From the NCBI RefSeq assembly GCF_003018255.1, contig NZ_CP027440.1: DNA of 64,000 nucleotides. One strand, 5' to 3'. How positions within the stretch are numbered: position 1 is the stretch's first letter; each line of letters opens with the position of its first letter. This DNA comes from Escherichia coli. GTDB taxonomy: Bacteria > Pseudomonadota > Gammaproteobacteria > Enterobacterales > Enterobacteriaceae. The notes beneath the pieces were generated by a model that was given only the letters and a program-made list of their open reading frames with translations, was not told the origin of the DNA and made no database searches. Positions 9,269 to 47,078 of the stretch are shown piece after piece. The translations under genes were made by a program, and so were the position numbers.

Positions 9269-9643
9269 CTAACAAGATAAACTCGCAGGATTCTCTTTCG
9301 TCGCATTGACAAAACAACGGAATAGTCGATTACCTGACTTCCGCCATTTCTGAAGATCCTGCATATTAATACCATAACTACTGAACAACATAAAGGTGTC
9401 ATCCAGATATTCGTCGATCTGCTCAATGAGCTTATTGTCTTCATTATACTTAATTTTGTAATTAAGTGCGAAGGTCGCAATATGCTCAATCAGTTCATTC
9501 AACTGGAGGTTGATCGCCGAGGTTGGGTCGTTAACCCAGCCATGATTGCTTTCTTCAAGGTTTGCAAGACAGTCATGATACAGGGTTTCACAGAGAAACT
9601 TAAGCTGCGCGATATCATGTCTTTTGGGTGAGTATTCATCCAT
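9269..9643 (-). CDS. tomB: Hha toxicity modulator TomB
   Basis: 124-aa ORF immediately upstream of hha, recognised ybaJ/tomB. Confidence 0.92.
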
Positions 9644-19816: not shown

Positions 19817-20194
19817 ATGCAACGAATCATTTTAATCATCATTGGCTGGCTGGCGGTAGTGCTGGGTACGCTGGGCGTGGTATTACCGGTATTACCGACG
19901 ACGCCGTTTATCCTGCTGGCGGCCTGGTGCTTTGCCCGTTCTTCCCCGCGCTTTCACGCCTGGTTGCTGTACCGCTCATGGTTTGGCAGCTATCTACGTT
20001 TCTGGCAGAAACATCATGCGATGCCGCGCGGCGTCAAACCGCGGGCGATTTTGCTTATTTTGCTCACGTTTGCCATTTCTCTGTGGTTCGTCCAGATGCC
20101 ATGGGTGCGCATCATGTTGCTGGTAATTCTCGCCTGTTTGCTTTTTTATATGTGGCGAATTCCAGTGATTGATGAAAAGCAAGAAAAGCACTGA
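19817..20194 (+). CDS. ybaN: Inner membrane protein YbaN (DUF454)
   Basis: 125-aa ORF with four hydrophobic segments. Confidence 0.9.
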
Positions 20195-42850: not shown

Positions 42851-43258
42851 ATGAACATTAGCGATGTAGCAAAAATTACCGGCCTGACCAGCAAAGCCAT
42901 TCGCTTCTATGAAGAGAAGGGGCTGGTGACGCCGCCGATGCGCAGCGAAAACGGTTATCGCACCTACACGCAGCAGCATCTCAACGAACTGACCTTACTG
43001 CGCCAGGCACGCCAGGTGGGCTTTAACCTGGAGGAGAGCGGCGAACTGGTGAATCTGTTTAACGATCCGCAGCGTCACAGCGCCGACGTCAAACGTCGTA
43101 CGCTGGAGAAAGTGGCGGAGATCGAACAGCATATCGAAGAACTGCAATCCATGCGTAACCAGCTGCTGGCGCTGGCGAATGCCTGCCCCGGTGATGACAG
43201 CGCCGACTGCCCGATTATCGAAAATCTCTCCGGCTGCTGTCATCATCGGGCGGGGTGA
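42851..43258 (+). CDS. cueR: MerR-family Cu(I)-responsive regulator CueR
   Basis: 135-aa ORF; [29 protein letters not shown]-terminal metal-binding Cys pair (CPGDDSADC). Confidence 0.97.
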
Positions 43259-44013
43259 TTAAGGCTTGCGAAAATAGTCGTCCATTATTTTCGTCAGCTC
43301 CGGACGTTCCCCGTCATCATTGATGGCAAAATCCAGAAAAAAAGCATCTGCTTGCGGCGTTCGGTTTTGCGCCATCAACCGGAAGGTGAGGGGGCCTGAC
43401 CAGGTTTCGGATGGGCTGATGTGCTTATCAGGGCCGAAACTCTCCCATGCGTTGGGCGGTAATGTTTTGCACGCGGTGAGTTTTGGTATGTGGTATTGCA
43501 GCTCTGTTTTGTGCAGACATTCCCCGCCAGGAAATACCAGGGTTTGTTGCTCATCATTAAAATGGGTTGCCGTGCTGAGCACCAGTGTTTTGAGCGGTCG
43601 CCCTTCCAGCGCGGCGGCAGTAGCCTTATGGTGTCCGTCGAGCAGAACGCAGAGATAGGAATCAGGGAGATACCAGGCCAGAGCGCGGGCGATTCCAGTT
43701 TTCGAGAGCAGACAAAAACCGGGCGGCTCCCTGTTCACCCTCCGCAAAACCGCTGTAGACAAATTCCGCACAGGTAGGGCAACCAGCCTCGGACCAGAAA
43801 CGTATTAACGGGACATCCTTGCCAGCAGAGCGAATGGATAAGACCGTGCGAGTGCGGATCGTAAATCACACATTGACGCAGAAATCCTTTCCCGGACTTC
43901 ACCGAAAAAATGACGCCCGCAGCGGTATTTTTCAGCAGACGTACTTCAGGTTTTCGAAAGGGGAAAAAGCATGGCCACTCCTTAGCCAAAATTTCAGTTC
44001 CCTGAACTGTGCC
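43259..44013 (-). pseudogene. Decayed gene of unknown function (ParB/Srx-like DGHHK motif); longest piece is a 170-aa GTG-initiated ORF 43259-43771
   Basis: Three overlapping minus-strand frames are open in turn (44013-43735, about 43872-43669, 43771-43259), none with a convincing ATG/SD; last frame contains YLCVLLDGHHKATAAALEG. Confidence 0.45.
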
Positions 44014-44060: not shown

Positions 44061-44267
44061 TTACCCATTAATCCCCGTTTGTACCGAAAGAATATGTTGC
44101 AAACTTTCTACCATAATGCGCCCCGACTGAAATAAGCCTTCCTGGATTTCATTGTTAACATTCACAGCGTGAACCAGGGAGGCTAATAACACCACTTGCA
44201 AGAAGGCAAAAATAAACGCACCGATAATCATAATATGCGTCAGGGGGATTTTCCTTTGCTCCTTCAT
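44061..44267 (-). CDS. Small single-pass membrane protein, unknown function
   Basis: 68-aa ORF; start ATG overlaps upstream lipoprotein stop (ATGA, 44264-44267); one hydrophobic helix IMIIGAFIFAFLQVVLLASLVHAV. Confidence 0.6.
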   Translation of the reverse strand: MKEQRKIPLTHIMIIGAFIFAFLQVVLLASLVHAVNVNNEIQEGLFQSGRIMVESLQHILSVQTGING

Positions 44268-44686
44268 TTTAAATAACCCACAAACTGGCCTTCTTTCATT
44301 AAGGCGACTTTTCCTGTGTGATGATAAACAATGACATTATACAGACCCGACTGATAAACCGTGGCATCGGCATTATCTTCATCTATGGCACATAATGAAT
44401 CATTGAGATAAGCAAAATTCTTACTACTCATTCTAAAGGTCATGCCAAATCCTTTATAAATGGCTTTTTTTGCCGCCTGGGCATGTTGTGCGGCTTCTGC
44501 ATTTTTAAATGCCTGCGCTTCAGAAGCACTTAAAATAGCCGTCTGGCGCTGCTGTTCTGCGAGATAACAGGTGTCATGGCTGACGCCCTGCGCCTGACAA
44601 TCTGCGATGCGGGAAGCGGGTGAGCTACAGCCAGCCAGTAATATAACCGCCAGCAGGGAAAAGGATTTAATGGAGCTATTCATCAT
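44264..44686 (-). CDS. Lipoprotein, unknown function
   Basis: 140-aa ORF; signal peptide plus lipobox LLAGC|SS; AAGG SD; Ala/Gln-rich helix then beta-rich C-terminus. Confidence 0.75.
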   Translation of the reverse strand: MMNSSIKSFSLLAVILLAGCSSPASRIADCQAQGVSHDTCYLAEQQRQTAILSASEAQAFKNAEAAQHAQAAKKAIYKGFGMTFRMSSKNFAYLNDSLCAIDEDNADATVYQSGLYNVIVYHHTGKVALMKEGQFVGYLK

Positions 44687-44771
44687 TGTTAACCTTAAAT
44701 AATGTGCGAATTAATGAAGAGGTGAAACCCGGCAAGCTTCCTTGCTCTTATTTATATTGAGGATTGAAATA

Positions 44772-45788
44772 TTAGAACGAATATCCTACGCCGACACCTG
44801 CGCCGAAATCAGATTGCGTATCCGCAGAAATACCGGCTTTAAGTACCGTATGCGTTCCGGCATTAAAAGATGTTCCGACAGACACCGCAGATTCACCGTT
44901 GAAGGTTCCCGCTCCCGCTGACACCATCATCACGTCACCGGTTTTAACCTGTGGTTGTGAGGCGATAGCGATGGCAGATGCAGTTCCCGCATTGGCTTCT
45001 TTACGGTTGTCCTCAACTTCGTTTTTCAGCGAACTGTAATGGTTATTGAGCGTGTTAATTTGTTGGCTGTTATCTGCGACCCGTTTTTGCGTGTTGCTTA
45101 ACTGTTGCTGCGTTTGTGCGGAATCTTGTCTCAGACTTTCAATTTGCTCATGTGCCTGGACAGACTTCTGCGCCAGACTTTGCATTTGTTTATCGTATTG
45201 AGCCCTTTCTTTTTGCTGTTGTGCTGCCACATCGGTTGTCAGTGCATTCATTTTCTGCCCTTGTTCCGTGGTAGTGCGCTGATTAGCCTCATTTTGAGCC
45301 GCCAGTCTGGCATTAATCATCTCCTGATAATGCGCAGTATTTTGCGTATCTCCAGTCGCGGCGAGCGTTTTTTGTGTGGCTACGATCTGCGCCTGTTGCT
45401 CTGTAATTTGCGTTTGCTGGGCATCAGTTACCGCAGACTGTCGGGCGTTGATCATGCTCTGATAACGGGCAGGTGTCTGTGTATCACCTGTAGCGGCAAC
45501 GGTTTTTTGTCCTGCGTCAGGATCTGTCTGGACAGTGGGAGTCTGAGTGGTATCAGGTGTTTCAGAAGGGATGTAGTGATGTTCAGTCAAATAGGTATAC
45601 GCAGCGGGGCTGTTGTCTGTGCGTTCTAAAAAGCGGGTAATCTTCTGCTCAATCTCCGATTGCGACATGCCAGAGTTAATGGCTGAAAGCTCTGTTGCCG
45701 CCGCTTCAATGGTATCACCAGCTAAAACAACAGGGCTGGATGTTGCTGAAATTATGAGTGCCAGTAAAGCTACGTTTACAGTTTTCAT
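44772..45788 (-). CDS. Short 'headless' trimeric autotransporter adhesin-like protein (coiled-coil stalk + YadA-type anchor)
   Basis: 338-aa ORF; signal peptide MKTVNVALLALIISATSSPVVLA; Gln-rich heptad stalk; C-terminus ...VMMVSAGAGTFNGESAVSVGTSFNAGTHTVLKAGISADTQSDFGAGVGVGYSF = four beta-strands ending aromatic, typical YadA anchor. Confidence 0.8.
   Translation of the reverse strand: MKTVNVALLALIISATSSPVVLAGDTIEAAATELSAINSGMSQSEIEQKITRFLERTDNSPAAYTYLTEHHYIPSETPDTTQTPTVQTDPDAGQKTVAATGDTQTPARYQSMINARQSAVTDAQQTQITEQQAQIVATQKTLAATGDTQNTAHYQEMINARLAAQNEANQRTTTEQGQKMNALTTDVAAQQQKERAQYDKQMQSLAQKSVQAHEQIESLRQDSAQTQQQLSNTQKRVADNSQQINTLNNHYSSLKNEVEDNRKEANAGTASAIAIASQPQVKTGDVMMVSAGAGTFNGESAVSVGTSFNAGTHTVLKAGISADTQSDFGAGVGVGYSF
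45240..45509 (-). repeat. Diverged 135-bp (45-aa) tandem duplication inside the adhesin stalk
   Basis: QKTVAATGDTQTPARYQSMINARQSA... vs QKTLAATGDTQNTAHYQEMINARLAA...; DNA landmark GTATC at 45346 and 45481 (135 bp apart). Confidence 0.8.
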
Positions 45789-45821
45789 TCATTTTCTCTT
45801 GTTCAAAATAAGTCGCATTAA

Positions 45822-45838
45822 TGTTTCTATAAGAAACA
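45822..45838. promoter_or_regulatory. Inverted repeat TGTTTCT-ATA-AGAAACA (candidate operator)
   Basis: 7-bp arms; lies just downstream of predicted minus-strand promoter (-35 TTGCAA 45868-45873, -10 AATAAT 45845-45850) of the adhesin operon. Confidence 0.45.
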
Positions 45839-45947
45839 AATAATATTATTTTAAGAAATAAACTGCGTTGCAATTTAATCGAAATCTACGCCGCCATTTG
45901 TGTGATGTAAAGCGCATTTTTGTCTGGTGTAAGCGTAAACACCACCA

Positions 45948-45972
45948 ATAAGAAACAAAAAATGTTTCTTAT
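45948..45972. promoter_or_regulatory. Perfect inverted repeat ATAAGAAACA-AAAAA-TGTTTCTTAT (candidate operator)
   Basis: 10-bp perfect arms, same core heptamer as 45822-45838 but with opposite arm order. Confidence 0.5.
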
Positions 45973-46154
45973 ATAAATAAAATCGAAAATCATTTTGTGC
46001 TCTTTCAATGTAAAAAAGAGTAAAGACTTGTTTTGATAAGCGAAATAAATTCTGTTTCTGGACTAAACGTGAAGCGGTTCCTGATGTGTGCTAAAATGCG
46101 TTTCTTTGATAAATCTCAATTTTTAAGAGGTTTACGCCAGGCAGGAAAATTTAA

Positions 46155-46517
46155 ATGAATGAATTTGAGAAGATTTTTAATGAAATGAATCTGGACCGGG
46201 CATTGTTACCGATCCTTTTTCGTTCGAACCGGTCGACAGTGTGGAAGTATTTAAGCGGCGATAGTACGGCTCCTGCCTCTGCCATGTCGCTGATCATGCT
46301 GTTGCAGTTGATCCAGAAACGAAACCCCGATCTGTTAGCCGAATGGTTAACGCTTTCTGATTTCACCATTCCGCCAGAAGTTTACCTGGACCAACCTGAT
46401 TACTGGAAAGGGTGGGTGTATACCCAACACAAGGTCAATAAAAACGTCCTGGAATATCTAAAAAAACACTATCCGGATGAAGACCAAAAAAGTATGGGTA
46501 AAGGCCGGGAAGAGTAA
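46155..46517 (+). CDS. Small HTH protein (MqsA/XRE-like N-terminal domain + unknown C-terminal domain), candidate local regulator
   Basis: 120-aa ORF, AGGAAA SD; RSNRSTVWKYLSGDSTAPASAMSLIMLLQLIQKRNPDLLAEWL parallels the ...RYEKG...P....KLL..LDKHPELL pattern of MqsA-type HTH domains; extended -10 TGCTAAAAT at 46089-46097. Confidence 0.65.
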   Translation: MNEFEKIFNEMNLDRALLPILFRSNRSTVWKYLSGDSTAPASAMSLIMLLQLIQKRNPDLLAEWLTLSDFTIPPEVYLDQPDYWKGWVYTQHKVNKNVLEYLKKHYPDEDQKSMGKGREE

Positions 46518-46539
46518 TTTTGCCTCTACTCGGCTATAT

Positions 46540-46625
46540 GCCGGATGCGGCGCAAGCGCCTTATCTGGCCTACGATTCGGGCATATTTTGTAGGCATGAT
46601 AAGACGCGCCAGCGTCGCATCAGGC
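46540..46625. repeat. BIME: two inverted REP units
   Basis: GCCGGATGCGGCGCAAGCGCCTTATCTGGCCTAC (46540-46573) and GTAGGCATGATAAGACGCGCCAGCGTCGCATCAGGC (46590-46625); second unit overlaps the ybbJ stop. Confidence 0.88.
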
Positions 46626-47078
46626 GATGACCGCACGGATAATCAGCGTTATCCCTTCTATCGCAATCACCTCAACATGCGTACCTGCACTGAGATCCTC
46701 GCTGGCGCTGACAGGCCATGAACTGTCACCGACGCGCATATGACCACGCCCGTTGACCAGCGGAGATTCCAGAACAAAACGTCGGCCAATCAACTGCTGC
46801 CCGCGCTGGTTTAAATGACTGTCGCTGTGCTTTTGTTCGCGCACCCGCCGCGACAACCATTTCCACCACAGCCAGGCGGCGAGCAGCGTCAGGACGGCAA
46901 ACATTACCCCTTGCCACTCCCAACCCAGCGGCAGCAACCAGACCACCAGACCGGTAATCACCGCTGCCACGCCGCTCCACAACAGATAACCATTGCCGCC
47001 CAACATCTCGGCTGCCAGCAGCAAACCGCCGAGACTTAGCCAGAAAATATGTGGATGAACGACCATTAACTCCATCAT
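46620..47078 (-). CDS. ybbJ: NfeD-family membrane protein YbbJ
   Basis: 152-aa ORF, three TMs plus C-terminal OB-like domain; overlaps qmcA by 4 nt. Confidence 0.92.

Follow-up and report, generated by a model that had tools for sequence, protein, structure and literature searches.

The 64,000-nucleotide stretch of Escherichia coli DNA analysed here (contig NZ_CP027440.1; hereafter the window) carries a small accessory island between cueR (42851-43258, +) and ybbJ (46620-47078, -) that corresponds to O-island 29 (OI-29) of O157:H7. Our subject is the divergent control region of this island, the gap between a minus-strand adhesin unit headed by z0639 ('gmrA') and the plus-strand helix-turn-helix (HTH) gene z0640 (Table 1); its GC content is 30.6%, as compared to 52.1% for the window. 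The z0639 protein has the parts of a trimeric autotransporter adhesin (TAA): an N-terminal signal peptide visible in the translation (MKTVNVALLALIISATSSPVVLAG), a coiled-coil stalk that gives sub-threshold matches such as TMF_DNA_bd and SMC, and a C-terminal YadA-type anchor (Pfam YadA_anchor, 1.1e-11, residues 279-338). Its C-terminus also matches the PDB translocator domains of AtaA and Hia (1.5e-6 to 6e-5), RefSeq names it 'YadA family autotransporter adhesin', and a phage collection searched with it returned distant anchor and stalk matches only. Over 44700-46700, the window is 100% identical to E. coli strain JNE23-011. Of 5426 complete E. coli genomes, 1415 carry the gap together with the 120-amino-acid (aa) HTH gene, each as a single chromosomal copy, and the carriers of z0639, about a quarter of complete E. 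coli genomes, include O157:H7, O55:H7, O145, UTI89, RS218 and avian pathogenic E. coli (APEC) strains.

An earlier note on this DNA had described one heptamer, TGTTTCT/AGAAACA, repeated through the gap in both arm orders, and had read it as an operator array for a dimeric regulator, most simply the adjacent 120-aa HTH protein, that controls both divergent units. We found that all of the strings it quoted are present, both the repeats (TGTTTCT-ATA-AGAAACA at 45822-45838, AAGAAATA at 45853-45860, ATAAGAAACA-AAAAA-TGTTTCTTAT at 45948-45972, TGTTTCT at 46053-46059 and GCGTTTCTT at 46098-46106) and the promoter-like strings (TTGCAA at 45868-73, AATAAT on the minus strand at 45845-50 and TGCTAAAAT at 46089-97). 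Counted on both strands, the heptamer occurs five times in the 366-bp gap and nine times in the entire 64-kb window, and the enrichment holds against a shuffled background, since five copies are not reached in any of 20,000 shuffles that preserve the dinucleotides of the gap (mean 0.11, maximum 3). To guard against post-hoc bias, we ranked all strand-merged k-mers of the gap against its first-order Markov model, which replaced an any-7-mer shuffle control that was dominated by A/T homopolymer words. The top 5-mer is GAAAC/GTTTC and the top 6-mer is AGAAAC/GTTTCT, with 6 copies observed as compared to 0.28 expected (Poisson ~6e-7). The perfect palindrome with 10-bp arms is also there, but by itself it is only mildly unusual in AT-rich DNA (22 of 1000 shuffles give an arm of at least 10), so the repeated pentamer and hexamer hold most of the signal. 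A 34-nt direct repeat with 79% identity (blocks 45829-45862 and 45948-45981) joins the first and central sites. This repeat, and the 2.2% of AT-rich shuffles that yield such a palindrome arm, are what might be seen if the copies were not protein sites but chance occurrences in AT-rich DNA, remnants of local duplication or RNA elements of the two 5' leaders.

The comparison of orthologous gaps gives the decisive support. We collected 13 orthologous loci from E. coli, Escherichia sp. E1V33, E. whittamii, E. ruysiae, an Enterobacteriaceae isolate, Pseudocitrobacter, Leclercia, Symbiopectobacterium and metagenomes, whose regulator proteins are 61-99% identical and whose gaps are 352-379 bp long. 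Each of the 13 loci pairs the small protein with a divergent TAA-type gene, the passenger domain of which varies (174-627 aa); the YadA anchor is recorded or visible for most of them, and the 174-aa Symbiopectobacterium gene is without it. GAAAC/GTTTC is the top 5-mer in 10 of the 13 gaps and second in the other 3, AGAAAC is the top 6-mer in 9, and in a MAFFT alignment GTTTC falls at aligned positions. The central GAAAC is exact in 10/13 gaps and is followed after 7 nt by an exact GTTTC in 5/13 and by GTTTA in two more. Across genera, identity to the window is 77% for the six exact arms as compared to 55% for the whole gap, a value that 46 of 20,000 random position sets reach. When the hexamers of the gap are ranked by conservation, four of the top ten are the motif and the rest are mostly promoter elements. 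Among E. coli loci, the central palindrome keeps its arms unchanged and varies in its spacer (for example AAAAAAT or TGAATTG).

The repeats are also regularly spaced. When we aligned 74 GTTTC instances from the 11 non-redundant gaps, a T appeared at +5 and A-G-A-A at +9 to +12; the G at +10 is present in 32 of the 74 instances (about 11 expected) and marks an inverted partner after 5 nt. Convergent GTTTC-N5-GAAAC gives 39 sites scoring at least 8/10 as compared to about 12 at other spacers, and divergent GAAAC-N7-GTTTC gives 28 as compared to about 11. In the histogram of start-to-start distances, direct repeats have one peak at 22-23 bp (39 pairs) and another at 44-46 bp; the convergent peaks are at 10 and 32 bp and the divergent ones at 12 and 34 bp. 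Direct-repeat pairs number 2 at 10 bp and 0 at 11 bp, the 10-bp peak being convergent, and this histogram rules out direct repeats of the OmpR/PhoP type. Together, the peaks describe an alternating array of 15-bp inverted-repeat units that recur every 22-23 bp. A period of 22-23 bp is two helical turns and therefore sets the units on one face of the DNA, with inverted half-sites about one helical turn apart that recur in helical phase, as in repressor operator arrays. The array is plainest in the metagenomic locus L010 (GTTTC-ctata-GAGAT-tatttgt-GTTTC-tataa-GAAAT-taattgt-GTTTC). Both arm orders of the earlier note are therefore real, but they are not two kinds of site: N5 is the inside of a unit and N7 the junction of neighbouring units. 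We prefer N5 as the probable dimer-binding unit, a choice that sequence alone cannot settle, because its half-site centres are 10 bp apart and because it is found in isolation (in Leclercia and L014, midway along the gap). A count of the full unit in the 64-kb window gives 5 hits with at most one mismatch as compared to 2.2 expected, a number that 10 of 100 shuffles reach, and outside the gap the unit is not enriched. We discounted two perfect GTTTC-N5-GAAAC units at 9585-9599 and 19998-20012, which overlap listed open reading frames (ORFs) and belong to a window-wide count at chance level.

We then placed the units with respect to the two predicted promoters. The extended -10 that the earlier note proposed for the HTH gene is supported by the comparison: TGnTAnnAT is kept in 13/13 loci, with GTTTCT 2 nt after it in 12/13, and it is found again in the distant relatives L022, L023 and L027. 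Its position puts site F at about -4 to +11 and site E at about -50 to -36 of the predicted start. The minus-strand promoter proposed for the adhesin, TTGCAA-17-AATAAT (45873-45845), scores 9/12 in a promoter scan but is not conserved, and elsewhere its positions hold copies of the motif (CGAAAC or AGAAAC). We found instead that TTTACA-17-TAGATT, 38 bp further upstream, is conserved in 13/13 loci with -10 variants (TAGATT, TAAATT, TATGTT and TATTTT) that all keep TAnnnT, and the most conserved hexamers of the gap fall within it. The adhesin start is predicted from it near 45876-45879, which places P3 across the start (about -5 to +10) and both P2 and P1 no more than 55 nt into the predicted transcript. 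Because this is the conserved promoter, the first site (P1) does not lie just downstream of the -10, as had been claimed, but about 40-54 nt into the predicted adhesin transcript (+40 to +54). The broader claim, that motif sites stand at both divergent promoters, agrees with the predictions, with F and P3 overlapping the two conserved predicted starts. Between the promoters, the centres of C1 and C2 are 22 bp apart and their inner arms form the palindrome of 45948-45972. The pair (45942-45978) lies at about -66 to -102 from the predicted adhesin start and about -126 to -162 from the predicted HTH-gene start, and other genera have [G/A]TTTC-N5-GAAAC-N7-GTTT[C/A] at this position.

Table 1. Genes, predicted promoter elements and repeat units of the island, in order of position in the window (fractions of 13 refer to the orthologous loci)
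Feature	Position	Strand	Description	Surroundings and conservation
Downstream gene of adhesin unit	44061-44267	-	68-aa ORF	
Lipoprotein gene	44264-44686	-	140 aa; z0638 orthologue; lipobox LLAGC in translation	
Adhesin gene	44772-45788	-	338-aa TAA; orthologue of z0639 ('GmrA') and Sakai ECs0548	first gene of the controlled unit
Divergent control region	45789-46154		366 bp, 30.6% GC	between z0639 and z0640, island OI-29
P1	45823-45837		GTTTC-tataa-GAAAC; perfect 15-bp unit, 10/10; putative operator	35-49 nt upstream of adhesin ATG, near the ribosome-binding site of the TAA gene; left arm GTTTC exact in 10/13; right arm GCAAC in some E. coli and E. whittamii/E. ruysiae
P2	45845-45859		ATTAT-tttaa-GAAAT; degenerate; holds near copy AAGAAATA	22 bp from P1; exact GTTTCT at aligned position in Leclercia and metagenomic loci L010, L012, L013, L014
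P3	45867-45881		GTTGC-aattt-AATCG; degenerate; holds TTGCAA, the '-35' of the earlier note	44 bp from P1; exact GTTTC here in 9/13
Predicted adhesin promoter	45883-45911	-	-35 TTTACA (45911-45906), 17-bp spacer, -10 TAGATT (45888-45883); scan 9/12 matches	
C1	45942-45956		(ccacc)-aataa-GAAAC; inner arm only	
C2	45964-45978		GTTTC-ttata-TAAAT; 8/10	
E	46054-46068		GTTTC-tggac-TAAAC; 9/10 arm positions	about 100 nt upstream of regulator ATG; GAAAT (46042-46046) before it at N7, GGTTCC (46076-46081) 22 bp beyond; GTTTC exact in 10/13; GTTTCT here among the ten most conserved gap hexamers
E2	about 46076		GGTTCC	
HTH-gene extended -10	46089-46097	+	TGcTAAAAT (TGCTAAAAT); predicted start near 46104	
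F	46100-46114		GTTTC-tttga-TAAAT; 8/10	begins 2 nt past the -10, about 55 nt upstream of regulator ATG; GTTTC exact in 12/13, 97% column identity
HTH gene	46155-46517	+	120-aa protein, z0640 orthologue; XRE/Cro-type HTH at N-terminus (about residues 1-65)	proposed binder of the array

With P1, P2 and P3 inside the predicted adhesin leader, an RNA element or another origin that involves no protein might still be considered. The pentamer, however, ranks first or second in every orthologous gap and keeps its aligned positions where the flanks are near saturation, its 10/12/22-bp geometry is strict, and it reads GAAAC on one mRNA and GTTTC on the other. A search of the gap against Rfam gave no family match and the fold of the adhesin leader is unremarkable (z = -1.7). 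Because of the conservation pattern, the lack of an Rfam match and the ordinary leader fold, we consider chance, duplication or RNA structure very improbable as the origin of the repeats and excluded for practical purposes.

The gap contains other elements outside this lattice. A CRP-like TGTGAtgtaaaGCGCA (45902-45917) is strongly conserved, but we do not count it as a separate site because the conserved minus-strand promoter has its -35 hexamer at the centre of this sequence. A block at 46010-46024, GTAAA-aaaga-GTAAA, runs into GTAAAGACTTGTTTTG (46020-46035) with column identity of 0.85-0.97 across genera; it matches the CpxR consensus, GTAAA-N5-GTAAA, and in some orthologues the first half of the 46010-46035 block is GTAAGAAAC, a copy of the motif. 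A sigma-28 promoter in the part at 46020-46035 was rejected, as judged by eye, since both spacing and hexamers mismatch TAAAGTTT-N11-GCCGATAA. In the predicted HTH-gene leader, TTGATaaatCTCAA (46105-46118) resembles the FNR consensus TTGAT-N4-ATCAA at 9/10 positions by eye and overlaps the right arm of F; Escherichia, Pseudocitrobacter, the Enterobacteriaceae isolate G50 and metagenomic L012 share it in the form TTGAT[AT]AATCTCAAT, and L008 and L010 have altered versions. In E. coli, the two ends of the gap differ in variability: the adhesin-proximal 80 bp (45786-45866, compared with L016-L021) are hypervariable and the regulator-proximal 130 bp are almost invariant. The adhesin alleles also differ (338 aa here, 436 aa in an O145 strain), which suggests that one adhesin allele has been exchanged for another at a breakpoint within the control region; all of the E. 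coli variants compared (L016-L021) retain the GTTTCT arm of P1.

To characterise the candidate binder, we modelled the 120-aa z0640 protein with AF2. An alignment of 10 close homologues gave a pLDDT of 50, and we used 23 diverse sequences instead, which gave a pLDDT of 89 and a pTM of 0.79. The model has a five-helix lambda-repressor-like fold with a helix-turn-helix, and the C-terminal ~55 residues are helical. Foldseek matches it to HigA2 (probability 1.0, E-value 0.29), and controller (C) proteins of restriction-modification systems are also among the structural matches. At the sequence level, the window protein matches only MqsA_antitoxin in Pfam (E = 0.082, 13.5 bits as compared to a cut-off of 30), NCBIfam gives no match for it, and sequence searches of the PDB with the HTH protein found nothing significant. 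When the 23 family members are considered by E-value, Pfam places MqsA_antitoxin on 5 (best 2.4e-5), Xre-like-HTH on 4 (3.7e-5) and HTH_3 on 3 (2.5e-4). The family is tiny, with 21 clusters in a collection of 5.8 billion proteins and 24 representatives at E <=1e-3 among 1.84 billion proteins. We found no DNA-binding domain in any other gene of the island, and no toxin-like ORF beside the 120-aa gene, which is flanked only by the gap and by a REP element, with ybbJ beyond it. The earlier choice of the adjacent protein is supported by its predicted XRE-type fold and by its place as the sole DNA-binding candidate of the island, but not by a curated-profile match at gathering score. Frameshifted variants of the protein (P0006, P0016 and P0018, the last with 14 member sequences) keep the HTH and have their C-terminal ~40 residues replaced, and they may represent naturally occurring regulator alleles with lost or altered function.

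That z0640 is the sole HTH protein of OI-29 bears on the literature of this island, in which the same locus appears under the name GmrA and the gap studied here is the gmrA (z0639) upstream region. Yang et al. (2018; PMC5826968) treat z0639 itself as the transcription factor of OI-29. We mapped their published deletion primers onto an O157:H7 genome and onto the window and found that the gmrA primers flank exactly the 338-aa TAA ORF and that a z0640 primer maps to 46117-46154, so that both edges of the gap are covered. These positions identify 'gmrA' as the TAA ORF, z0638 as the lipoprotein gene and z0640 as the 120-aa HTH gene. Judged by sequence, the published 'transcription factor GmrA' is a secreted YadA-family adhesin, and its assignment in the literature is probably a misassignment; the 'DNA-binding domain' reported for GmrA from CDD may be explained as a coiled-coil artefact of the kind seen in the TMF_DNA_bd and SMC-like matches. 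The Sakai orthologue ECs0548 had been listed as a 'Saa-like protein' adhesin (Ogura et al., 2007; PMC2323221), and a 2024 review still lists GmrA as a transcription factor, with z0640 unmentioned in its passages on GmrA and OI-29 (PMC10877973). In the work of Yang et al., gmrA mRNA is highest soon after contact with host cells and at 37 C, pH 7 and physiological osmolarity, and z0638, gmrA and z0640 all fall to 0 reads per kilobase per million (RPKM) by RNA-seq on HeLa attachment (PMC5826968, Table S3); both divergent units are therefore co-regulated. A z0640 deletion had no motility phenotype, so z0640 was considered dispensable for motility and was not studied further, and the mechanisms that regulate gmrA were still to be established according to the authors (PMC5826968).

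If the z0640 family binds the array, the motif should follow the protein. Members of the family are divergent from a TAA-type gene in 13/13 close loci and from a YadA-anchor gene in 3/6 distant loci, despite different chromosomal sites. By genus, the insertion points of the module are cueR/ybbJ, qmcA/cnoX, qmcA/fetA, beside nrdAB or adjoining an Xre-RES toxin-antitoxin pair (L008, L010, L013, L014 and L015), often within one cueR-ybbJ-qmcA-fetAB-cnoX neighbourhood. The distant relatives next to YadA-anchor genes are L022 (48% identical), L023 (44%) and L027 (32%). A repeat search on the distant loci gave no matches at the thresholds chosen, and we used a custom palindrome scan instead. In L022, GTTTCT is still the top 6-mer, with one copy directly after TGGTAAAAT; L023 has GCAGAAA repeats; L027 has the palindrome AAGAACATT-t-AATGTTCTT with GTTCT 22 bp on, the same architecture with a half-site one T shorter; and L025 has TAGCTA palindromes. 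These few loci hint that the motif co-varies with the linked HTH protein.

This pattern also bears on the possibility that a global regulator, and not z0640, binds the array. GAAAC occurs in OmpR half-sites, and the CpxR-like block at 46010-46024 is fairly well conserved. Transcription of gmrA responds to osmolarity and pH, and deletion of z0640 has no reported phenotype (PMC5826968). Nevertheless, the half-sites are inverted and two-fold symmetric, the excess of 10-11-bp direct repeats that OmpR/PhoB-type tandem binding needs is not seen, the motif accompanies the module at its various chromosomal sites and in other genera and changes where the linked HTH protein is divergent, and the full unit is not enriched in the 64-kb window outside the gap. 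Because of the inverted symmetry, the lack of 10-11-bp direct repeats and the movement and change of the motif with the module, we disfavour a global regulator and regard it as improbable.

Taken together, these data point to the gap as the shared control region of a conserved two-part module, a TAA operon and a divergent small XRE-type HTH regulator, and we think it probable, though far from certain, that the GTTTC/GAAAC array is the set of operators through which z0640 controls both divergent genes. We infer both the binder and the sign of regulation. z0640 dimers would recognise the 15-bp inverted repeats GTTTC-N5-GAAAC, every 22-23 bp on one DNA face, in three groups: P1-P3 over and just downstream of the adhesin start, the central C1/C2 pair, and E, E2 and F, which bracket the regulator's extended -10 and start. 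With F and P3 occupied, RNA polymerase would be kept from both promoters and autorepression would go together with repression of the adhesin, the phased neighbours and the central pair would allow cooperative and possibly looped binding, and both divergent units would switch together. What holds of the operator-array interpretation in the earlier note is that the repeats behave like the operators of a two-fold-symmetric DNA binder (centres 10 bp apart, phasing of 22-23 bp, conserved arms and variable spacers); the part that is not supported is its adhesin promoter.

The main alternative to repression by z0640 keeps this protein as the binder but makes it an activator, a counter-silencer or, like the C proteins, a dual-mode regulator. 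The gap is AT-rich in a 52% GC chromosome, C1/C2 at about -66 to -102 of the adhesin and E at about -43 of the regulator occupy positions used by activators, and both units rise and fall together. In addition, gmrA is thermoregulated and osmoregulated, like many H-NS-silenced genes (PMC5826968). F and P3, on the other hand, overlap the predicted starts, which are positions of repressors, and we regard activation or counter-silencing as unlikely, although it deserves more weight than a global regulator. Several observations count against the operator model that we favour. In this strain, the lattice is degenerate at P2, at P3 and in the outer arm of both C1 and C2; the window's 120-aa protein is below the Pfam gathering threshold and its Foldseek E-values are weak; the co-variation argument is based on only three or four distant loci; and both transcription starts are predictions. 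The z0640 deletion also lacks a motility phenotype despite a reported effect of gmrA dosage, unlike what strong repression of gmrA under those conditions would give (PMC5826968).

We take the locus to be a real, well-conserved and so far unstudied local control circuit. For gmrA, a published virulence-associated gene, the operator model of control is concrete and cheaply testable, with a defined 15-bp operator, its positions, two conserved predicted promoters and z0640 as candidate regulator, and it comes with a small HTH family, not characterised before, whose members are specifically associated with trimeric autotransporter adhesins. That GmrA is an adhesin by its domains bears on how the OI-29 motility phenotype is interpreted. 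At the edges of the island, a frameshifted hypothetical gene beside cueR (43259-43938, -) is extra in this strain and absent from the 2,643-bp OI-29 of O157:H7, and REP-type palindromic elements lie between the HTH gene and ybbJ (46503-46662; Rfam naRNA4 at ~30 bits as compared to a gathering score of 59.5).

Among known systems, the z0640 system resembles the C proteins (C.Esp1396I, C.AhdI and C.PvuII) in having a small XRE-type HTH protein encoded beside its own operators, which are putative in the case of z0640; C proteins are dimers, as we propose for z0640. Both have at least two adjacent inverted-repeat operators at a promoter, and we propose for z0640 the cooperative binding, autoregulation and control of a neighbouring gene seen in C-box systems. 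C-boxes, in contrast, consist of two neighbouring operators in the ~35 bp upstream of one promoter, whereas the divergent region described here has at least three groups, set on a 22-23-bp lattice that extends for 290 bp. C proteins control an endonuclease and not an adhesin, and z0640 has an extra helical C-terminal part of ~55 aa, with no C-protein membership found at the sequence level. As compared to lambdoid CI/Cro at the tripartite OR/OL, there is here no prophage context, a single regulator in place of a CI/Cro pair, a different 5-bp half-site with N5 spacing and a more extended array. The MqsA operator is ACCT-N2-4-AGGT, which differs from the unit described here, and the zinc-binding N-terminal domain of MqsA is absent from the 120-aa protein. 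No toxin or anti-CRISPR gene of the kind found with MqsA, HigA2 or Aca2 lies nearby, and the partner gene is a trimeric autotransporter. By analogy, the z0640 system would work like small XRE repressor operator arrays, but we do not assign it to the C-protein, CI/Cro, MqsA/HigA2 or Aca2 families, because toxin, anti-CRISPR and restriction-modification genes and a prophage context are absent and no curated-profile threshold is reached. In Neisseria meningitidis, NadR is a dedicated local repressor of the trimeric autotransporter adhesin gene nadA, with one operator over the promoter or start and a second one distal upstream. NadR belongs to the MarR family and is encoded elsewhere in the genome, and nadA has a phase-variable repeat tract, which is not present here. 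As a dedicated repressor of a TAA from a different protein family, z0640 would be a functional parallel to NadR in the NadR-nadA system.

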